A stretch of 64,000 nt of DNA from an uncultured Eubacteriales bacterium (GCA_964585685.1 CAZPEP010000068.1:91686-155685), one strand, 5' to 3'. Numbered from the stretch's first letter, positions 15,608 through 25,343 are shown. Translations and numbers: made by a program. Notes: generated by a model from the sequence alone, not told the origin.

Positions 15608-16819
15608 ATGTCCGAATCCGGGGAAATCGAAAAAGAGTCCAATCTCGTCATCCAGGAGATCGAAAACCAGCTGGAGAGGCTTCTCGCCAGGAAAAAGGAC
15701 GAGATCGATAGCGCTCTGGCCGCGAGGATTCGGGAGGAGGAGGAAGCTGCCAGAGCCCGGATGGACGGCGTGGAGAAGGAGATCGACCGGGGACGGGAAT
15801 CCCTCCGGGAATTCCAGACCATGGTCTCCGAATCAGAAGGGGAGAGGCAGGCGGTCCTGGAGGAGATCCGGGCGGGCTTTTCCCAGGCCCTCGACTTCCA
15901 GTCCCAGATCGAAGGCCTCGTCAAGCGGACCGTTGAGGAGATCGGGAGAGTCGGTGACCTCCAGCGGAAACTGGAATCCTTAAGGCGGCGGACCTCGGAG
16001 GGCGCGGCCTTCCTGAAGAGGGACCTGAACGAGAGGTTCGGGATCGTGGCTGAAGCCCGCGGGGAAAAGGAGCGCTGGCCGGAACCCACCCCAGACCTCG
16101 ACGCAGAGCTGGAAAAGCTGAAGAGGATCCGGACACTCCTTGCCGGCGGGACGGAAGGTTTCCCCGGGTTGGAGAATTCTCCCGGATCGGAACCGGAGGA
16201 CGTCTGGCGGGCCCGGATCCCCGATATCCAGGAGCTCATTCAGGCGACTAAACCGGTCGAGGACGGCCGTCCGGTTGAGACTCCGCCCGGCCAGGGCGCC
16301 GGGGACGCGAGTTCCGTTTTGGACCGTCTGCGGAGGATCGAGCCCGTCGCGGGAAGCGGGAAGATCAGCTATTTTCAGAAAGGGGACAGGACCGTCTTGG
16401 ACGCCGGGATGCTTCTCGATGCCGTGGACAGGGCTGTGGACGTGGCCCGGAAGCTGGCCGGAAAGCTCGAAGAAACGGAATCGCCCCGGGAACGCTTCTT
16501 CATCAAACAGGATCTCATCAACGGCCAGGAGGGCCTCCGTATCCTCATCCTACGGGCCGCGACGCTGTGCGAGAAGGAGTCCATGACGCTTCCCCCGGAG
16601 ACCCTGGACGTCCTTGACGCCGCCGGGCTGAGGAGCCTGTTTGACCGGCTGAGCGTTGGGAACTGGGCGAACGCGGCGGACCTCACCGCATTCGCCGGAG
16701 AAGCGAAGGCGCTCCGGGCGGCCTTTCTGGAACGGGCGGTCCCCTCCGACCGGTATGTGCTGTCGATTCTCGAAAAGCTCGGCGGCGTGCCGTCAGTTGA
16801 GCGACCCGGCCTTCTGTAG
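15608..16819 (+). CDS. hypothetical coiled-coil protein
   Basis: RBS aaggag plus ATG at 15608. The N-terminal 150 aa are rich in heptad-like E/R/L repeats. No known domain. Confidence 0.55.
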   Translation: MSESGEIEKESNLVIQEIENQLERLLARKKDEIDSALAARIREEEEAARARMDGVEKEIDRGRESLREFQTMVSESEGERQAVLEEIRAGFSQALDFQSQIEGLVKRTVEEIGRVGDLQRKLESLRRRTSEGAAFLKRDLNERFGIVAEARGEKERWPEPTPDLDAELEKLKRIRTLLAGGTEGFPGLENSPGSEPEDVWRARIPDIQELIQATKPVEDGRPVETPPGQGAGDASSVLDRLRRIEPVAGSGKISYFQKGDRTVLDAGMLLDAVDRAVDVARKLAGKLEETESPRERFFIKQDLINGQEGLRILILRAATLCEKESMTLPPETLDVLDAAGLRSLFDRLSVGNWANAADLTAFAGEAKALRAAFLERAVPSDRYVLSILEKLGGVPSVERPGLL

Positions 16820-18814
16820 GGACTCGAAGTATTCCTCGAGCGCCTTCCGGTCGGTGGGCGACAGGTCCTTGAACTGCAGCCCGGAATAAAAATAAGGGGA
16901 TTCCCCCCCGGCTTTGTCCGAATAGACCACGTCGCTCGCGACGCGGTTCGCTTTGTTCCCCAGCACGAGGATCAGGCCGATCGACTTGGCGACGGGAAGC
17001 CGGGCCTCGGACAGGATCTTCGCCCCTCCGAGGCTCAGGTTGATCGTCTTCGCCACCTTGAACCCGCCGTTCTCCTGGATCATCACAAGGGTGGCCGCGT
17101 GGTATCTCTCGGACTTCCTCTTTTCCCGGTAAGACGTCTCCTTATAGGTCCGGATTATCCCGCCCTGCCGTTCCTCCGCCTGTTCTCGTGAGTAACAACA
17201 GACCTTGTTCTTCGCGAGGACCCGTTCGTCCGTCCCTCCGGCTCCCGGCTCGAAGAATCTCTTCCCCTTGGCCTCGGCCATGGCCATGTCCGCCTCGCCG
17301 GCCAGGATCCTCAGGTCAGGCTTGTCGACGTCCGGGGCCTGTCCGGGCGCCGGCGGCGGGAACATCGTTACGCCGAAGGACATGGTCAGGTTGTTCCCGG
17401 GTTGGAACTCCTGAAACTCGAAATAGTGCTCCTCGACGTTCTTCCGGATGCGGTCGGTGAGCAGGCAGGCGTCCTCGGGGCTCTTGACGCCAGTCAGAAA
17501 GAAGAGGAACTCCTCCCCGCCGTAGCGGCAGACGAGGTCCTCCTCGCGGATCGAGTCCTTCATGACGCCGGCCAGCTCGCGCAGGAGCTTGTTCCCCGCC
17601 TCATGACCGTTGCGGTCGTTGTAGTACTTGAACCAGTCCACGTCCCCCATGACCAAAGCCGAGGAGCCCTCCTCGCGCCGGCGTTTGCCCTGGGAATTGA
17701 TCTTCTGGACGACCTTCTCGAAGAAGGGGTCGGGCCGGAGCAGGCCGGTCAAGGCGTCGTACTGGATGAGGTTCAATTTCGTCATCGCGATGGCGATGTG
17801 CTCGGACAGCCCCCGGAGAATCTCCTGATCCTCCCGAGAGAAGCCGGACCGGGCGGACTTTCCGCCGGAGGTCTTGTTGTAGACCTCGACGACGCCGATG
17901 ACCTCCGTGTCGTGGCGGATGGGGACGGCCAACAGGCTCTTCAGCGGCGTCCGGAGGTGCTCGATGTACCTCCGCGAGAGGCGCTGGTCGAAGGAGAGTT
18001 CGGTGATGTTAACCTCCCGTCCGTTGAGGGCGACGGACGCGGCGAAGTCCTGGGCGTCGAGGCGGGCGACGTATCTCAGGAATTCGGGATGTGTCAGGAA
18101 GGTGTCGTCCCAAACCAGCGGCTTGAGGTACCGGCCGAGCGTCTCGTTCTCGTCCAGGATGTAGATCGTGGCCCCGGAGGCCTGGACGATGTCCTTGAAG
18201 TCCGTAGTGATGTCGAGAAGGCTCGAGACGTCGTTGGCCGCGTAGATCTTGCGGAGGACCTTTTCGATCCTCTGCCGCTCCTTCTGGAACCAGACGTACT
18301 TTGCCTCGATCGCCACCCGTTTCTCGAGCTCCTTGATGAAGTTCTCGTTGATGAGGCTCTTGATCTCCCGGATTTCGGCATAGACGTCACGGACCTTGGC
18401 CCCCTGGATGTCGAGGGCGCTCCTTAGGGAGCCGACTTCTGTCCTCATCGCGGCGTGGGTGAGTGCTCGTTCGACGGACCTGGTGAACTGGGCGTCGTCC
18501 TGGAGAGGGAAGGATAGGGCGAACGTGTCGACGTACCTGTCGGAAGGCCAGTCCCGGGCCAGGGACCGGAGCCTTTCATCGTCCCGGCCGGTGATGATGA
18601 CGGCCGTCGCCTTGCCGAACAGGCTTAGGGCGGAGGACTGCGCCGCGGCCGAGGCGTCGAGGACGGCGAGCAAGGTGTTTGCCGTTTCCGGCAGGGCCGC
18701 GGCCGACTCGAGGGAGGACGCGGCGACGACCGTCCCGTAACGCCGGCAGAGCTTCGACAGGAGGTCGGCCTCTATAGGATTCGGATTCAGAATGAGGATT
18801 GGTCTCTGGTTCAT
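16793..18814 (-). CDS. multidomain c-di-GMP protein: REC-like, GAF, GGDEF diguanylate cyclase and C-terminal PilZ
   Basis: GGDEF active site RYGGEEF. GAF-like core (EVIGVVEVYNK). The C-terminal PilZ carries RKSER (RxxxR) and NLSLGG (D/NxSxGG). Confidence 0.8.
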   Translation of the reverse strand: MNQRPILILNPNPIEADLLSKLCRRYGTVVAASSLESAAALPETANTLLAVLDASAAAQSSALSLFGKATAVIITGRDDERLRSLARDWPSDRYVDTFALSFPLQDDAQFTRSVERALTHAAMRTEVGSLRSALDIQGAKVRDVYAEIREIKSLINENFIKELEKRVAIEAKYVWFQKERQRIEKVLRKIYAANDVSSLLDITTDFKDIVQASGATIYILDENETLGRYLKPLVWDDTFLTHPEFLRYVARLDAQDFAASVALNGREVNITELSFDQRLSRRYIEHLRTPLKSLLAVPIRHDTEVIGVVEVYNKTSGGKSARSGFSREDQEILRGLSEHIAIAMTKLNLIQYDALTGLLRPDPFFEKVVQKINSQGKRRREEGSSALVMGDVDWFKYYNDRNGHEAGNKLLRELAGVMKDSIREEDLVCRYGGEEFLFFLTGVKSPEDACLLTDRIRKNVEEHYFEFQEFQPGNNLTMSFGVTMFPPPAPGQAPDVDKPDLRILAGEADMAMAEAKGKRFFEPGAGGTDERVLAKNKVCCYSREQAEERQGGIIRTYKETSYREKRKSERYHAATLVMIQENGGFKVAKTINLSLGGAKILSEARLPVAKSIGLILVLGNKANRVASDVVYSDKAGGESPYFYSGLQFKDLSPTDRKALEEYFESLQKAGSLN

Positions 18815-19015: not shown

Positions 19016-20683
19016 ATGATCGAGAGAACGGGAGCTCCATCGAAGCCTATCCGGGCCTACCGCGGGAACGTCCTGCACACGAAGGGCTGGTCCCAGGAGG
19101 GCGCGCTCCGGATGCTGATGAATAACCTCGATCCCGAGGTGGCGGAGAAGCCCCGGGACCTCATCGTATATGGGGGCACGGGCAGGGCCGCGCGCAATTG
19201 GGAATGCTACCGGGCGATCGTCGAAACCCTCAAGAGCCTCAGGAACGACGAGACGCTCATCGTTCAGTCGGGCAAGCCTGTGGCCGTGTTCCCGACTCAT
19301 GACCAGGCTCCCCGGGTCCTCATCGCCAACTCCCTGATCGTCCCCAAGTGGGCGACTTGGGACGAGTTCCGGAGGCTCGAAACCTTGGGACTGACGATGT
19401 ACGGGCAGATGACCGCCGGGAGCTGGATTTATATTGGGACCCAGGGCATCCTCCAGGGGACCTATGAGACCCTGGCCGCCGCGGCCCGCCGGCATTTCGG
19501 AGGGACGCTCAAGGGCAGGCTCGTCCTCTCGGCCGGGCTCGGGGGGATGGGCGGGGCACAACCGCTGGCCGTTACTATGAACGAGGGCGTGGCCGTTGTC
19601 GTCGAGGCCGACCCGGAGCGGATCCGGCGCCGCCTTGACACGCGGTATGTCGACGTCATGACCGAAAGCCTCGACGAGGCGCTGAGGCTCGCCGACGCGG
19701 CCATTAAAAAGGGAGAGCCCCTCTCCGTCGCCCTCCTCGGCAACGCCGCCGACGTCGTCCCCGAGTTCGTCCGGAGGGGGATCGTCCCCGATGTGCTGAC
19801 CGACCAAACCTCCGCCCACGACGAGCTTAACGGGTACGTCCCGAACGGCATCCCGTACGCCGAAGCCCTGAGGCTCCGCCGGGACGATCCGAAGGACTAC
19901 ATCCGGTGCTCCTACGAAGCGATGGCCGCCCACGTCCGGGCGATGCTCGAGCTCCGGAGGCTGGGGGCCCGGACGTTCGATTACGGGAACAACATCCGGG
20001 GCCAGGCCCTTAAGGCCGGCGTCGCCGACGCCTTCGACATTCCGGGCTTCGTCCCCGAATACATCCGCCCGCTCTTTTGCGTGGGCAAGGGCCCGTTCCG
20101 CTGGGCTGCCCTTTCCGGACGGGCGCGGGACATCCACGTCACGGACGAGGCCGTCCTCAAACTGTTCCCGGAGGACGAGGCTCTCGCGCGGTGGATCCGA
20201 AAAGCCCGGAAACACGTACGGTTCCAGGGATTGCCCTCGCGGATCTGCTGGCTCGGTTACGGCGAAAGGGCGGAGTTCGGCGACGTCATCAACCGCATGG
20301 TCCGAAAGGGCGAGATCAGCGCTCCGGTCGTCATCGGGCGCGACCACCTGGACACGGGCTCGGTGGCCTCGCCGAACCGCGAGACCGAGGGGATGAAGGA
20401 CGGTTCCGACGCCATCGCCGACTGGCCGGTCCTCAACGCCCTGCTTAACGCGGTGAACGGAGCCTCTTGGGTTTCCGTCCACCACGGCGGAGGCGTGGGC
20501 ATCGGTCTGTCCCTGCACGCCGGGATGGTCGTCGTCGCCGATGGCACGCCGGCCATGGGGAAGCGCCTGGAGAGGGTCCTCACCGGCGATCCCGGGATGG
20601 GGGTCGTCCGGCACGCCGACGCGGGCTACGACGAAGCGGTCCGGTTCGCCCGGGAGAATAAGATCAAGATCCCGATGATGTGA
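19016..20683 (+). CDS. hutU: urocanate hydratase
   Basis: [56 protein letters not shown] is the canonical urocanase N-terminus. 555 aa. Confidence 0.92.
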
Positions 20684-20781
20684 CGGATTTCCGTCCGCGG
20701 CCCCCGGCTCACGTCTTGTGACCTCCTCCGCACGCCTAAACGACTGTCTTTGAACGGCTCAGAGCTCGTGTCTCATCTTGA

Positions 20782-20811
20782 GCGCCCGTCGCCCGCTCTG
20801 CGGTCGGGCGC
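20782..20811 (+). promoter_or_regulatory. inverted repeat, candidate enhancer (UAS) about 100 bp upstream of the sigma54 promoter
   Basis: GCGCCCG..CGGGCGC arms (20782-88 and 20805-11). An AT-rich tract at 20833-20855 lies between this repeat and the -24/-12 element. Confidence 0.35.
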
Positions 20812-20882
20812 CGCTACCCCCGGTTCGCGCAGAATCTTATTATTATCAAGGGGATAGTTGGAGACCGTTTCCGGCGGCGTCC

Positions 20883-20898
20883 AGGCACGGAACTTGCA
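20883..20898 (+). promoter_or_regulatory. sigma54 (-24/-12) promoter
   Basis: AGGCACGGAACTTGCA against consensus TGGCACG-N4-TTGCA, 15 of 16 matches. The GG-N10-GC spacing is exact. It lies 27 nt upstream of ATG 20925. Confidence 0.7.
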
Positions 20899-20924
20899 TT
20901 GGAACCTGTCGAAAGGAGGTTCCG

Positions 20925-21143
20925 ATGAAAAAAGCCGTTGCCCTCGCGCTTGCAGGGCTGGTCATGTTCTCCGCGGTCTGGTTCTTTCCCCGGTTGGCAG
21001 AGGCCCGTGACACCGCCGAATGCTTCAGGAACCACTCCACGTGCCGCAACAACGCTTTCGGCATGGACGTGGGCTGGGTCAGGATGACGCTCGTGCTGAC
21101 GGTCTGCGACGCTGGCCTGGGAAGGTGCCTCCTGCTGGCTTGA
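20925..21143 (+). CDS. small secreted Cys-rich peptide (72 aa precursor with signal peptide; mature about 43 aa with 4 Cys)
   Basis: RBS aaggagg at 20913-20919. The sequence is MKKAVALALAGLVMFSAVWFFPRLAEA | RDTAECFRNHSTCRNNAFGMDVGWVRMTLVLTVCDAGLGRCLLLA. It is immediately followed by a hairpin terminator. Confidence 0.6.
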   Translation: MKKAVALALAGLVMFSAVWFFPRLAEARDTAECFRNHSTCRNNAFGMDVGWVRMTLVLTVCDAGLGRCLLLA

Positions 21144-21151
21144 AAAAGGAA

Positions 21152-21189
21152 AGGGGCCCCTGAGAAAAAAGGGGCCCCTTTCACGTTTC
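21152..21189 (+). terminator. rho-independent terminator
   Basis: AGGGGCCCCT-gagaaaaa-AGGGGCCCCT followed by TTTCACGTTTCTCTTT. Confidence 0.7.
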
Positions 21190-21214
21190 TCTTTATAGCA
21201 CGTGGAGGTTCCCG

Positions 21215-22210
21215 ATGAAGATGGCAATTACTCGTCCGGCCGCGGCCGCGCTGGCCGCCGTAATCGTCGCGGCGGCCTTTCCTTCCGGCGGGAAGGGGGA
21301 CCTCCGGCGCCTCTCGGTCCGGGACGTCAAGGCTGATTTCCGAACGGATGCCGAGGCCGCGTTCGGCCGGCCCGTCTCCATTTCTCACGACGCCGACGCC
21401 GTCTACGTCGTCGACGCGGAGGCCCACGAGGTCAGGGTTTTTTCCAGGGCAGGCGTCTTTCTCAAGGCGCTGGGGAGGAAAGGGCAGGGCCCCGGAGAGT
21501 TTGATACACCCGCCGATCTGGACGCGCGGGAAGGCCGTCTTTATGTTGCCGACAAGTTCAATGACAGGATCCAGGTCCTGGACGGGGCCGGGAAATACCT
21601 CGGCGGCTTCAAGGTCCCGTTCAGTCCGGACCAGGTCTGCGCCTTGAACGGGGGAAAGGTCGTCGTATCCCATCTTCCTTTGGGACTCAGGGGGGCCGAG
21701 CCTATGCTCCATTGTTACTCGGCGGAAGGGAGGCTCCTCTGGGAGGGGATGGCGTGCCATGTGTCGGGGGACAGGACCTACGATGCGTTCCGCAACCTCC
21801 TCGTCATGGTCCGCGGAGGGAGGGACGATCTCTACGTCATCCGGAAGAGCGACGAGAACGCGATTCACCGTTTCGACGGATCGGGAAGGCCGCTCGGCCC
21901 GATCGTGGTCCCCGACGCCTATGCCTTTAAAACGATCACCCTCCCGCTTCCTGGCCCGAACCGGGTCCTCAAGGCCTTTTGCTGGGACGCCGCCTTCGAC
22001 GGGGACCGGATCGGTCTCCTCGCCCCGGACTACACCGACGAGGGGGACATTGGCCCCGGGAGGCGCATCTATATCGTCGGTCTTGACGGGAGCCTTGGCG
22101 GGCTGGTTGAGCTCCCCGTAATCGTCAGGAGGATAGATCTGGACGGCGACACGATCCACGCCATCGACGACGACTACAATCTGAGGATCTTCAAGATGGA
22201 GCTTCGATGA
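21215..22210 (+). CDS. secreted NHL-repeat (six-bladed beta-propeller) protein
   Basis: RBS ggagg. Signal peptide present. Repeated hydrophobic-YVVD/YVAD-x-N-RIQV motifs (YVVDAEAHEVRVF, LYVADKFNDRIQVLD). Confidence 0.8.
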   Translation: MKMAITRPAAAALAAVIVAAAFPSGGKGDLRRLSVRDVKADFRTDAEAAFGRPVSISHDADAVYVVDAEAHEVRVFSRAGVFLKALGRKGQGPGEFDTPADLDAREGRLYVADKFNDRIQVLDGAGKYLGGFKVPFSPDQVCALNGGKVVVSHLPLGLRGAEPMLHCYSAEGRLLWEGMACHVSGDRTYDAFRNLLVMVRGGRDDLYVIRKSDENAIHRFDGSGRPLGPIVVPDAYAFKTITLPLPGPNRVLKAFCWDAAFDGDRIGLLAPDYTDEGDIGPGRRIYIVGLDGSLGGLVELPVIVRRIDLDGDTIHAIDDDYNLRIFKMELR

Positions 22211-22695
22211 GGCGCGGCGGGGCTCTCGCGGGCTGGGCGGTGGTCTTCGCTTTTTCCTGTCTCGGGGCAGGGGGCGGCGACCGACGGTTCGTCCTGCATT
22301 CCCTGGACGAAGCCCTCCCGGCCAACGGTAGGCCGGCCCTGCTGGTATTCTTTTCGACGGGCTGCACCCCGTGTTTTGACGACCTCCTGGAGATGGCCCT
22401 GTTTGTCCGCCGGAACGGGCTCGACCTGGCGGTCGTGGGGGTCAGCGGTGATACCGAGGCCGAAATTGATAAGTTCGTCGAAAAACATTCCTTGACCTGG
22501 CCGGTTGTCCGCGACGAACGGGGGCGGATCCGCCGCAGGTTTAAGGTGGACCTCCTTCCCTATAAGATCGTCCTGGTCGGAGGGACCGAGGTCTACAGGG
22601 ACGATTATTACCTGGTCCTGGATGAGCGGCTGAGGAGGGTCCAACGATGCCTGATAGAGCTCGCGGCCGGCTCGCGGTCCGGCTCACCGTCCTGA
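22207..22695 (+). CDS. TlpA-like thiol:disulfide oxidoreductase (thioredoxin fold)
   Basis: CxxC motif LLVFFSTGCTPCFDDL, a redoxin-type fold. Start overlaps the NHL stop by 4 nt. Confidence 0.75.
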   Translation: MRRGGALAGWAVVFAFSCLGAGGGDRRFVLHSLDEALPANGRPALLVFFSTGCTPCFDDLLEMALFVRRNGLDLAVVGVSGDTEAEIDKFVEKHSLTWPVVRDERGRIRRRFKVDLLPYKIVLVGGTEVYRDDYYLVLDERLRRVQRCLIELAAGSRSGSPS

Positions 22696-23384
22696 AACTC
22701 CGGCGTTCGCCGGCGACCGTCGTGTCGGCGCTGTTGCTGCCGGCGCTCGTCGTCCTTGTCTGGGCTCGTGAGTCTCACGGGACCGCCCTGAGGATCTTCC
22801 TCTATCTCCTTCCCCACGTTTTCCTCGTCACGACGCAGAATATGTTCAAGGGCGAAGCCGCCGGGGGCGCGCTCGAGAACGTCCTCTTCGTCCGCGACGG
22901 CTTTAGACGGCATGTCCTCTGGAAGACCGCGGCCCTCGTTCTGTCGAGCGTCGCCTGCGCCCTCCTCGTCTTCGCGACCATTCAAGTCGGAGGTCTCGGA
23001 ACTCACCGGCCCGGCTGCGTGGACCTTCGGGGCTTAGCGGTTTCCCTTTGTGCCGGTGTCTATTATATCGGGCTCGGCGGCTTACTGGGGCACTTCCTCG
23101 AGGGAGGGTCGAATGTCCTGGCCCTCATCGTCGCCCAGGCGGCGGCGTTCGTCGGCTTGATCGTCGACGCCTCGGCCGGGCACCGATTTCTTGAATCCCT
23201 GGCGACGGGCACGTTCTCCGGCCCGGGGGAGCAACTGAGATTCATCGTTCTTGCGGGAGTTCTCCCCAATATCCTCGTCGCCGTTCCCTTGCGCCGCTAC
23301 GCGCCCTGGATTGTGCCGGCTGCCGGGGCCCTGTTTCTTATTCAGGTCCTGATCGTTCGGAGGTCGGAGCTGAGGGGACGATGA
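22647..23384 (+). CDS. polytopic membrane protein, probable ABC-2-type permease partner
   Basis: About six hydrophobic segments. It overlaps upstream and downstream genes, which indicates translational coupling. The true start is uncertain. Confidence 0.5.
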   Translation: MPDRARGRLAVRLTVLKLRRSPATVVSALLLPALVVLVWARESHGTALRIFLYLLPHVFLVTTQNMFKGEAAGGALENVLFVRDGFRRHVLWKTAALVLSSVACALLVFATIQVGGLGTHRPGCVDLRGLAVSLCAGVYYIGLGGLLGHFLEGGSNVLALIVAQAAAFVGLIVDASAGHRFLESLATGTFSGPGEQLRFIVLAGVLPNILVAVPLRRYAPWIVPAAGALFLIQVLIVRRSELRGR

Positions 23385-24085
23385 GCCGGACCGTTCTGGC
23401 CGTCCTGGGTCTCGCCCGGCGGTTCGGCGCCGTCCGGGCCGTCCGCGATATCGGGTTCTCCCTTGATGGGGGACGGGTCGCGGCGCTCCTCGGCGAGAAC
23501 GGCGCGGGCAAGTCCACGACCATCAGGATCGCCTTGGGCTTCCTGCGCAAAGACGAAGGGGAGGTCCTCATCGACGCCGGGACCGTCGGCTATGTCTCGG
23601 AACAGCCGTCGTTCTTCCCTTGGGCTTGCGGCGACGAACTCCTGGACTGCGCGGCCCTCCTCAACGGGATCCCGCGGGACCGGGCGCGCCGGAGCGCCCT
23701 CGAATGGTGCGAACGCCTGCCGTTCCCTCCCGAGCTCCTCCGGCGCAGGGTCTCGACATATTCCCAGGGGAACCGGAAGAAATTCGCCTACCTGCAGAGC
23801 CTCATCCTCTCGCCGGACCTCTTCGTCGCGGACGAACCCTTTTCGGCCCTCGACCCGGTCTCCATCCGGAACGTGCGCGGCATCTTCCGGGAACTCGCTT
23901 CCGGGGGGAGCGCCGTCCTGCTGAGCTCCCATCTTATTGCGGAGGTCGGGAAGGTCTATGACGACATCATCGTCCTCCATCAAGGAGCGGTGGTCCTCCG
24001 GGAGCGGCGGGAGAATCTAGGCCCCGGCGTCGACCTCGAAGCCCTCTTCCTGAAAGCGATCAAATCACCGTGCCGTCGGGGATGA
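23381..24085 (+). CDS. ABC transporter ATP-binding protein
   Basis: Walker A GENGAGKST. Signature YSQGNRKK (LSGGQ variant). Walker B LFVADEP. H-loop SSH. Confidence 0.85.
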   Translation: MSRTVLAVLGLARRFGAVRAVRDIGFSLDGGRVAALLGENGAGKSTTIRIALGFLRKDEGEVLIDAGTVGYVSEQPSFFPWACGDELLDCAALLNGIPRDRARRSALEWCERLPFPPELLRRRVSTYSQGNRKKFAYLQSLILSPDLFVADEPFSALDPVSIRNVRGIFRELASGGSAVLLSSHLIAEVGKVYDDIIVLHQGAVVLRERRENLGPGVDLEALFLKAIKSPCRRG

Positions 24086-25343
24086 CGGCGTTCTTTGGGA
24101 TGACGAGGATGCCGTCGACGATGACGTGGTTGTCGGAGCTGTCGGCAACTCTCTTCCGGACGTTGACCAGCCTCACTCCGGCGCCTATCCGGGCGTTCTT
24201 GTCGATGATGGCTTTGCGGACCTCCGAGTCCTTCCCGACGCCGATGTCGGGGATCCTCTGCGCCCGGTTCACCTTCAAGCCTTCCAAGGATTCGAAATAA
24301 TCCGCTCCCATCATGACGGTCCGCTCGATACGGCAGTTCTCGCCGATCCGCGACCGGACGCCGATAATCGACTGCCGGATCTTCGAACGGTTGACGATGC
24401 TTCCCTCGCAAAGGATCGAACCCTCGACCTCCGAACTCAGGATCTTCGAGCCCGGGAGGAACCGGGCGTGGGTGAAGATCGGCCGCTCTTCGTCGTAAAA
24501 ATTAAACCGCGGCAGGGCCTTGGTGAGGTCCATATGGGCCTCGAAGAAGCTCGGGATGGTCCCGATGTCCGCCCAGTAGCCGTCGAAGAAGTGGGCGAAG
24601 ACCTTCTGCTCCCGGATGGCGAAGGGGATGACCTCCCGGCCGAAATCCTCGTAGGCCGTTGAGGCGAGAAGGTCGCTGAGGACTCCCGAATCAAAGAGGT
24701 AGATCCCCATCGAGGCGAGATGCGAGCATCCGGCCGCGGAGGCGCCGAGCCGCCGGAGCACTTCCTCCGGGACCCTCGTCCGCTCGAGGTCCTCCGGCGT
24801 CTTCGGCTTCTCGCGGAAATCGACGATCCGGCCGTGCCGGTTGACCCTCATGACCCCTAGTTCCGGGGCCCGGTCGGGGCCGACGTGGGTCACGGAGATA
24901 CTGATCTCGGCGCGCTTTCGGAGGTGCGACTCCACGAACTTCCGGTAGTCCATCCGGTAGAGGTGGTCCCCGGACAGGACGAGGACAAGGTCGCCCATCT
25001 TCTCGATGAACTTCAGATTCTGCCGGACAGCGTCGGCCGTTCCCTGATACCAGTTCCGATTCTCGAGCGTTTGCTGGGCCGACAGGATCGTTACGAAATC
25101 CTTGGTGAAGTTGTCGAACCTGTAGGTCAGGAAGATATGGCGGTGGAGGGATTCGCTGGCGAACTGGGTGAGGATGAAGATCTTCCGGAAGCCCGAATGG
25201 ATACAGTTGCTGATCGGGATGTCAATGAGGCGGAAACGGCCGGCGATGGGTACGGCCGGCTTGCTCCGGACCCGGGTCAACGGAAAGAGCCGGCTTCCTT
25301 GACCGCCAGCCATGATGATCGTTACGATATTGGCCACGGGCAT
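24060..25343 (-). CDS. glgC: glucose-1-phosphate adenylyltransferase
   Basis: Start MPVANIVTIIMAGGQGSRLFPLT with RBS aaagga. C-terminal left-handed beta-helix. The longer 824 aa ORF extension has no RBS and is rejected. Confidence 0.9.
   Translation of the reverse strand: MPVANIVTIIMAGGQGSRLFPLTRVRSKPAVPIAGRFRLIDIPISNCIHSGFRKIFILTQFASESLHRHIFLTYRFDNFTKDFVTILSAQQTLENRNWYQGTADAVRQNLKFIEKMGDLVLVLSGDHLYRMDYRKFVESHLRKRAEISISVTHVGPDRAPELGVMRVNRHGRIVDFREKPKTPEDLERTRVPEEVLRRLGASAAGCSHLASMGIYLFDSGVLSDLLASTAYEDFGREVIPFAIREQKVFAHFFDGYWADIGTIPSFFEAHMDLTKALPRFNFYDEERPIFTHARFLPGSKILSSEVEGSILCEGSIVNRSKIRQSIIGVRSRIGENCRIERTVMMGADYFESLEGLKVNRAQRIPDIGVGKDSEVRKAIIDKNARIGAGVRLVNVRKRVADSSDNHVIVDGILVIPKNAVIPDGTVI

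Follow-up and report, generated by a model that had tools for sequence, protein, structure and literature searches.

The window analysed here, a 64,000-nucleotide stretch of DNA from an uncultured Eubacteriales bacterium (GCA_964585685.1, CAZPEP010000068.1:91686-155685), carries on its plus strand a gene for a small Cys-rich peptide (20925-21143) followed by four genes for an NHL-type beta-propeller (21215-22210), a thioredoxin-like protein (22207-22695), a membrane permease (22647-23384) and an ATP-binding cassette (ABC) ATPase (23381-24085). The original prediction, made from this DNA alone, had described the last four as an operon dedicated to the peptide gene. From a comparison of the locus with its relatives we conclude that the five genes constitute a single envelope cassette, inherited as a unit in an uncultured Aminicenantes lineage.

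The four downstream genes were confirmed on the plus strand in the list of open reading frames. They had been said to overlap by 4 nucleotides each, and this is the case at the propeller/thioredoxin (22207-22210) and permease/ATPase (23381-23384) junctions, both of which read ATGA, but at the thioredoxin/permease junction the overlap is 49 nucleotides, with the permease ATG at 22647, served by a GAGGAGG ribosome-binding site, lying that far ahead of the thioredoxin stop at 22695. The 3' end of the ATPase gene overlaps in turn with a convergent glgC by 26 nucleotides (24060-24085). An Rfam search of 20600-24200 returned nothing over threshold, and a PADLOC search for defence-system protein models gave generic similarity alone for the ATPase and no match for the other four proteins.

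Chance adjacency of these genes could be excluded, because a cassette of the same order was found in every related locus examined. We retrieved 80 metagenome loci with a pattern for the peptide only, and scored each downstream gene over the loci with enough downstream sequence to contain it. The propeller followed in 63/63, the thioredoxin in 50/50, the permease in 42/42 and the ATPase in 34/34, with zero violations of gene order. When the loci were instead approached through the propeller, the peptide lay 5' of every orthologous propeller with upstream sequence, and thioredoxin, permease and ATPase followed wherever the contig allowed, with one exception. That exception (L004; GCA_975969775.1, 5705-7577) encodes the peptide, the propeller and a 195-residue thioredoxin with an odd C-terminal tail, lacks both permease and ATPase, and continues directly into glgC, as if the ABC half had been cleanly deleted. 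These counts bear out the proposed dedication of the operon to the Cys-rich peptide gene, homologous operons being found together with a small Cys-rich reading frame throughout, and they exclude the view that the genes are merely unrelated neighbours. The full cassette was present in all five long contigs picked via the peptide and is retained in a relative of 36% G+C; pairwise identities of the five cassette proteins are correlated (Pearson 0.62-0.89), and relatives are labelled Candidatus Aminicenantes. The metagenome samples in which the cassette occurs include freshwater sediments (for example the Ga0315xxx series).

The peptide precursor has 72 residues and begins as a typical Sec signal does, with MKK, a hydrophobic core and an AxA site (residues 1 to ~27), leaving a mature part of ~45 residues that ranges from 44 to 49 across the family. 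Among 119 cluster representatives, C33, C40, R41, L58, T59, C61, D62, G66 and C68 are invariant, and exactly four mature Cys residues are found in 117 of the 119; in the most divergent peptides only the four Cys and one Leu remain invariant. Both Cys pairs are of the form Cx6C (C33-x6-C40 and C61-x6-C68), an i/i+7 spacing that corresponds to two helical turns. The AlphaFold model places helices at residues 30-45 and 51-71 with a short connecting loop, with a predicted local distance difference test (pLDDT) score of 93-97 over residues 31-60, and in this predicted hairpin the Cys residues would pair between the helices as C33-C68 and C40-C61. The mature form is of moderate hydrophobicity and neutral to slightly acidic, its second helix being hydrophobic, and its C-terminus is variable across the family, with no conserved C-terminal Gly. 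Because the peptide has a Sec signal of its own, the ABC transporter is not needed for its primary export.

No Pfam or NCBIfam model covers the peptide. Scanning the 119 family members with Pfam yielded hydrophobic matches below threshold and nothing else (DUF3262 in 26/119, best 9e-4); there was no match to NVEALA, a family of small proteins that may adjoin DUF5128 propellers in Bacteroides. A Foldseek search of the model against the PDB gave nothing significant (best E 2.5). A hidden Markov model search of 1.84 billion representatives recovered only 45 clusters at 50% identity, nearly all of them stand-alone proteins of about 70-77 residues, and a word-indexed search recovered 148 peptide clusters at 90% identity, all unnamed. 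The reading frame and its orthologues thus define a new small-protein family. Its Cys spacing differs from that of the plant alpha-hairpinins (Cx3C) and the CHCH proteins (Cx9C), to which it has neither sequence similarity nor significant Foldseek matches, and whose biology is unrelated. Two further identities were considered and rejected, that of an iron-sulfur or haem protein, given that the signal is of the Sec and not the Tat type and that CxxCH is lacking, and that of a type IV pilin, given that a class III signal is absent.

Upstream of the peptide gene, AGGCACGGAACTTGCA (20883-20898, plus strand, 42 nucleotides 5' of the peptide ATG) is the sole match to GGCAYN5TTGCW in the 64-kb window, where 0.21 would be expected by chance. 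The corresponding element, TGGCA[CT]-N5-TTGC[TA], was found at -39 to -42 from the peptide ATG in 16 of the 18 first-round loci, and the consensus was present as well in 77/77 metagenome loci with upstream sequence. The element conforms to the -24 GG/-12 GC consensus of sigma-54 promoters, the GG and GC doublets standing ten bases apart in TGGCAC-N5-TTGCW, and from this agreement we infer that it functions as a sigma-54 promoter. No sigma-54 enhancer-binding protein, as recognised by a GAFTGA motif, is encoded in the 64-kb window. A second conserved element, TATCA(A/G)...(A/T)TAG, precedes the sigma-54 element at 20844-20857, some 70-85 nucleotides 5' of the peptide ATG, in most orthologous loci, and could be an activator or integration host factor site. 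The ribosome-binding site of the peptide gene reads AAAGGAGG (20912-20919, plus strand), with GAAAGGAGG unchanged throughout the aligned upstream sequences.

Directly 3' of the peptide stop lies a GC-rich stem-loop of 13 base pairs (21149-21182, plus strand), which the original prediction had called a terminator. A strong hairpin at this position is indeed conserved, an equivalent having been detected in 63 of the 69 different sequences compared from orthologous loci (z < -2 relative to shuffles), and in one divergent locus (L094) the gap is only 16 nucleotides. A U-rich tail, on the other hand, follows the stem in only 6/69. Of the roles open to such a structure, whether attenuating, terminator-like or mRNA-stabilising, that of an attenuator or stabiliser is more likely than that of a full terminator. 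With the five genes as one transcription unit, an attenuating or stabilising stem would provide a higher dose of peptide than of its partner proteins. The stem-loop is almost its own reverse complement (GGGGCCCC core) and would form on either strand; its minus-strand tail is the more T-rich (CTTTTTCAAG).

The propeller protein (331 residues) matched the Pfam families DUF5128 ('6-bladed beta-propeller'; 7e-11, 42.2 bits against a cut-off of 22.9) and NHL (5e-6, 26.8 bits against a cut-off of 20). An AlphaFold model computed with 22 orthologues as input (pLDDT 88) contains about 25 strands, with residues 1-28 disordered, as for a signal or anchor. Foldseek ranked six-bladed NHL domains highest (Brat, Thin and TRIM2/71; TM-scores of 0.62-0.65), and a profile search of PDB sequences matched TRIM71, Brat, NHLRC2 (6gc1) and SOQ1 (7djj_A). 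Together with the N-terminal hydrophobic segment, which the propeller shares with the peptide and the thioredoxin, these results agree with the description of a secreted, six-bladed NHL propeller. At least 500 other stretches with NHL/DUF5128-like propellers share the motif GQGPGEFxxP, many of them from Aminicenantes and Acidobacteriota among the GTDB genomes. Given that peptide, thioredoxin, permease and ATPase were all absent from the 70 such paralogous loci inspected (L019-L088, GTDB genomes), the cassette propeller represents one specialised branch of a large expansion.

Since NHL propellers are catalytic in peptidyl-hydroxyglycine amidating lyases (PAL), modification of the peptide had been thought conceivable. 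The PAL site comprises a zinc held by three His residues with a catalytic Tyr and Arg, and its substrate ends in a C-terminal (hydroxy)glycine. Across the 22 orthologues the propeller family has a single near-invariant His (H166) and no invariant Cys pair, which makes it unlikely that the protein possesses either a zinc site of the PAL type or a redox centre of its own. A three-His site cannot be conserved under these circumstances, and the peptide offers no conserved C-terminal Gly, so the suggestion of PAL-like amidation was not sustained. PAL identity was also rejected on structural grounds, PAL (3fvz) appearing only at Foldseek rank 27 with 11% identity.

The thioredoxin-like protein (162 residues) matched Pfam AhpC-TSA (6e-11, 42.9 bits against a cut-off of 26). 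Its active site is CTPC, with the CxxC kept in all orthologues, and the motif FFSxxCxxC, the cis-Pro (P118) and a C-terminal Cys are conserved among 16 of them; the closest solved proteins are ResA and StoA. Taken with the hydrophobic N-terminus, a putative anchor or signal, these features fit the predicted TlpA-like CxxC oxidoreductase. The protein resembles TlpA, ResA, StoA and ScsD in its thioredoxin fold, FxxxxCxxC motif, cis-Pro, N-terminal anchor and dedicated single-client role, but it is orthologous to none of them, a CcdA/DsbD gene is not adjacent, and its client would be a 45-residue hairpin. Its NCBIfam equivalog scores all fell far below cut-off (StoA 35.8 against 210, ResA 35.7 against 170, MauD 21.5 against 188.6), and on the last of these MauDE identity was rejected. 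With four invariant peptide Cys residues in twin Cx6C motifs encoded beside an exported CxxC oxidoreductase, disulfide handling, as originally proposed, is plausible; the peptide with its four Cys residues is the obvious candidate for a thiol client, since no Cys pair is invariant in the propeller itself.

The propeller and the thioredoxin also occur as a single chain. In two independent assemblies that are 89% identical (L011:4860-6320 and P0023) they are fused into one protein of 488 residues, propeller first, in which the thioredoxin's own anchor is missing. Moreover, the lumenal chain of SOQ1 (7djj_A) was matched independently by the propeller, over its NHL part, and by the thioredoxin, over its thioredoxin (Trx)-like part (E 7e-4). 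SOQ1, of the plant thylakoid lumen, and NHLRC2, of animals, are the known Trx-like/NHL proteins (PMC6107167), and SOQ1 is reported to pass electrons from its Trx-like domain, to reduce client methionine sulfoxide and to repair LCNP, a small protein on which it acts by thiol chemistry (bioRxiv 10.1101/2024.11.01.621559). The window pair has in common with them a TlpA-type Trx-like CxxC module and a six-bladed NHL propeller in an extracytoplasmic-type compartment. The differences are nonetheless considerable. The window genes are usually separate and translationally coupled; SOQ1 and NHLRC2 have the Trx domain first, the Aminicenantes fusions the NHL part and then Trx; neither has a dedicated twin-Cx6C peptide or an ABC-2 transporter, both of which are present here; and at sequence level the likeness does not go beyond generic features of NHL and Trx domains. 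The pair may work like the SOQ1/NHLRC2 module, by analogy, while failing membership of that family.

One alternative that follows from this likeness is a SOQ1/NHLRC2-like periplasmic redox-repair enzyme acting on other envelope proteins, with the hairpin serving as adaptor, regulator or subunit and the ABC-2 transporter having a separate job. The independent matches of both proteins to SOQ1 and of the propeller to NHLRC2, the existence of propeller-thioredoxin fusions and the repair activity of SOQ1 itself are all in keeping with it. We nevertheless find it very doubtful, since SOQ1's C-terminal beta-stranded domain, the seat of its second redox pair and of its reductase activity, is absent (nothing follows residue 331 of the propeller or residue 162 of the thioredoxin), the domain order of the fused forms is reversed, and the strict one-to-one co-occurrence with a four-Cys peptide is explained most simply if the peptide is the client.

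The 22647-23384 product (245 residues) has a K/R-rich N-terminus and six strongly hydrophobic segments, as expected from its description as a membrane protein of about six transmembrane segments, and shares with its orthologues the motif QDM..DE..SGxLENV. The window copy has no significant Pfam match, and a profile search against PDB sequences found no solved relative. Weak matches were obtained with its orthologues, 7 of 15 of which matched ABC2_membrane_4 (best 6e-4) and 3 of 15 ABC2_membrane_2 (best 1.7e-5), a family that includes NosY, and on these similarities the protein is taken to be a divergent ABC-2 permease. The ATPase (234 residues) matched Pfam ABC_tran (7e-18) with Walker A, Q-loop, Walker B, D-loop and H-loop intact. 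Its signature, YSQGNRKK, had been noted as degenerate; the motif is as described, but in the form YSxGN[RQK]KK it is found in all orthologues and aligns with LSGGQRQR of solved ABC ATPases with the Ser and second Gly kept, and it is thus a family-wide conserved variant and not a decayed one. The nearest named relatives are of the ABC-2 class (DrrA, 4e-31; lantibiotic-protection subunit, 8e-31; GldA, NosF, Rv1218c and the nucleotide-binding domains of ABCA proteins), although the protein scores far below every NCBIfam family cut-off. The transporter accordingly shares its ATPase class and a small six-segment permease with LanFEG, DrrAB, Rv1218c and NosFY. The window ATPase lacks a C-terminal extension of ~50 residues seen in several orthologues (284-290 residues), and at one locus (L018:6370-8208) permease and ATPase appear as one long reading frame, probably a frameshift or assembly error.

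The resemblance to NosF suggests a second alternative, a thiol-based metal or metalloid module in which the Cys pairs of the hairpin would bind soft metals such as Cu(I), the TlpA-like protein would keep them reduced, and the propeller and ABC-2 pump would form a NosDFY-like maturation or detoxification machine. TlpA keeps the cysteines of ScoI and CoxB reduced, and ZraP is a precedent for a sigma-54-driven, small periplasmic helical stress protein. The ATPase has NosF among its best full-length solved matches (8e-23), the ABC2_membrane_2 matches point the same way, and the peptide is neutral to acidic and abundant; in addition, TlpA-type proteins are documented to reduce copper-site cysteines (PMC7558416). 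Against this, neither a metalloenzyme nor a metal sensor nor a P-type ATPase is encoded in the conserved neighbourhood, metal motifs built on His, Met or CxxC are missing from the peptide, and i/i+7 Cys residues on facing helices together with the invariant R41 and D62 fit structural staples better. Given also that the similarity to Nos proteins is all generic to the ABC-2 class, we regard such a module as unlikely. Membership of NosDFY(L) proper was rejected, the NosD beta-helix, NosL and a nosZ neighbour being absent in all loci.

A TlpA/ResA-like thioredoxin beside an ABC-2 type transporter superficially recalls CcmAB with CcmG, and cytochrome c maturation of the Ccm or Res type, or another recognised housekeeping system, was therefore considered. 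CcmC, CcmE and CcmF families are absent from the cassette and from 8 kb on either side in all annotated loci, nor do CcmH or ResB/ResC lie in or near the cassette in any locus. No CcmB match was found in the permease or its 15 orthologues, CcmA does not appear among the 25 top-scoring of the 186 NCBIfam matches to the ATPase, and the ResA score of the thioredoxin, as given above, is a small fraction of its cut-off. We consider this alternative refuted, in line with the earlier remarks that the gene order is not recognisable from Ccm System I, that a CcmC-like WWD protein is lacking and that the ATPase motifs do not match CcmA.

The arrangement of a small precursor gene, a stem-loop and then accessory genes is the usual layout of bacteriocin loci, and the glycocins (sublancin, glycocin F and pallidocin) in particular merit comparison. 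The mature part of a glycocin is a helix-loop-helix with two disulfides from two Cx6C motifs, and sublancin and glycocin F are twin-Cx6C hairpins whose Cys spacing is that of the window peptide. The window peptide is likewise a small precursor with a predicted helical hairpin and two invariant Cx6C motifs. Glycocin clusters moreover contain a dedicated thioredoxin-like gene and an ABC transporter beside the disulfide-stapled hairpin peptide (PMC6405829). Here, on the other hand, the leader is of the Sec type, with an AxA site, and not a double-glycine one, a split ABC-2 pump without a C39 peptidase stands in place of SunT, a DsbB-like partner is absent while an NHL propeller is present, no SunS-type glycosyltransferase domain was found in the cassette genes or their conserved neighbours, and the host is presumably diderm with the cassette clade-wide and syntenic. 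Glycocin cluster identity was rejected on the absence of SunS, the double-glycine leader and a SunT-type exporter.

A bacteriocin of another kind could still be envisaged, Sec-dependent and disulfide-stapled, in which the thioredoxin would fold a secreted antimicrobial hairpin and the ABC-2 pump would clear the producer membrane as a LanFEG-like self-immunity device. The hydrophobic second helix of the peptide, the weak similarity of the permease to ABC2_membrane_4 and the lantibiotic-protection ABC subunit as second-best NCBIfam match of the ATPase are consistent with this. That match is far under its cut-off, however (TIGR03740, 107.4 bits against 309.75), and there is a single permease gene where LanFEG systems have those of the MutE/EpiE and MutG types. 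Bacteriocin loci are usually patchy in distribution, whereas here a single copy has been passed on vertically, in conserved synteny, among relatives of only ~35-40% identity, and the peptide is strongly conserved, 10 of its positions being invariant among the 119 clusters. The mature peptide is neutral to anionic and not cationic, the locus has no outer-membrane export component, no peptide relative was found in viral contigs, and the supposed immunity pump is missing in L004. On balance a bacteriocin appears improbable.

Our preferred reading, which we are nearly as inclined to accept as to doubt, is a scheme in which the hairpin would be held by the propeller for the thioredoxin to set its disulfides, with the ABC-2 pump handling the hairpin at the membrane. 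In this scheme the mini-protein would be made in excess from the regulated sigma-54 promoter, exported by Sec and folded in the periplasm into an alpha-helical hairpin. The hairpin would dock on the propeller and so be offered to the TlpA-like oxidoreductase tethered to the membrane, which would set the redox state of the inter-helix pairs C33-C68 and C40-C61 by oxidation or reduction, most likely so as to form or proof-read two disulfide staples. At the inner membrane the ABC-2 pump, driven by ATP, would then move the hairpin, which is rather hydrophobic, or set it free, either for onward delivery or for protection of the membrane. Both the direction of the redox step and the substrate of the pump are putative, as are the 'processing', 'export' and 'immunity' roles that had been proposed for the operon.

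Somewhat more tentatively, we entertain an undescribed, Aminicenantes-specific envelope system in which a sigma-54-controlled, Sec-exported twin-Cx6C mini-protein is the dedicated client of a SOQ1/NHLRC2-like propeller-thioredoxin pair coupled to an ABC-2 transporter, and which is a housekeeping or stress-responsive peptide system and not a bacteriocin. The hairpin would then be a candidate redox buffer, chaperone, signal or surface component.

Several observations weigh against the proposed handling of the hairpin by propeller, thioredoxin and pump. Binding of the hairpin by the propeller is suggested by their co-occurrence alone, and stable gene order within the clade accounts for some of the linkage, since hutU (urocanate hydratase; 19016-20683, plus strand) is likewise found directly 5' in 48/48 peptide-selected loci with enough upstream sequence. 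Relatives of TlpA and ResA are usually reductants, which bears on a disulfide-forming role, and no redox partner of the CcdA/DsbD or DsbB/VKOR type is present in the cassette, which leaves disulfide formation putative. The pump is not indispensable to the core, given that the peptide is Sec-signalled and L004 does without the ABC genes. Finally, one locus (L095:759-2816) combines a distant twin-Cx6C peptide (profile E 1e-6) with a 323-residue secreted protein, a 225-residue membrane protein and an ABC ATPase in the absence of a thioredoxin. Profile comparison detected no homology of the 323- and 225-residue proteins with the window propeller and permease, and a scan with the 323-residue protein found no relatives; this locus may represent a second, analogous type of cassette.

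Beyond the cassette itself, hutU reaches 81% identity in a relative with only ~38% in the cassette proteins. The gene does not lie 5' of the most divergent cassettes (L094, L095 and L096), and no other hut genes adjoin it. Conserved 5' of hutU in most loci (16793-18814 on the minus strand of the window, and further upstream) are a GAF-GGDEF-PilZ protein, an HD_5/HD protein of the HD-GYP type and a reading frame of ~403 residues without a Pfam match, a neighbourhood of cyclic di-GMP signalling.

Full-text literature searches (DUF5128, Aminicenantes NHL repeat, propeller with TlpA) found no paper describing the cassette, and no curated family was found either. What is already known are the superfamilies of the parts and the principle of providing a small disulfide peptide with an oxidoreductase and an ABC transporter of its own; what is new are the peptide family, its pairing with an NHL propeller, control by sigma-54 and a housekeeping-like distribution across the clade. 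The cassette adds a putative conserved member to the sigma-54 regulon of a phylum without a cultured representative, and the hairpin, should it prove to be antimicrobial or to carry metal, would provide a new scaffold for such a function. The pairing of Trx-like and NHL modules spans bacteria to humans; NHLRC2, an essential protein, carries mutations in FINCA disease, and photoprotection is under the control of SOQ1. How propeller and thioredoxin cooperate, and on which clients, is poorly understood, whereas here the pair is tied one-to-one to a tiny, four-Cys candidate client, which makes the question testable with three small recombinant proteins. If the reading as a distinct envelope system is correct, the widespread Trx-NHL module would gain its first defined bacterial client.

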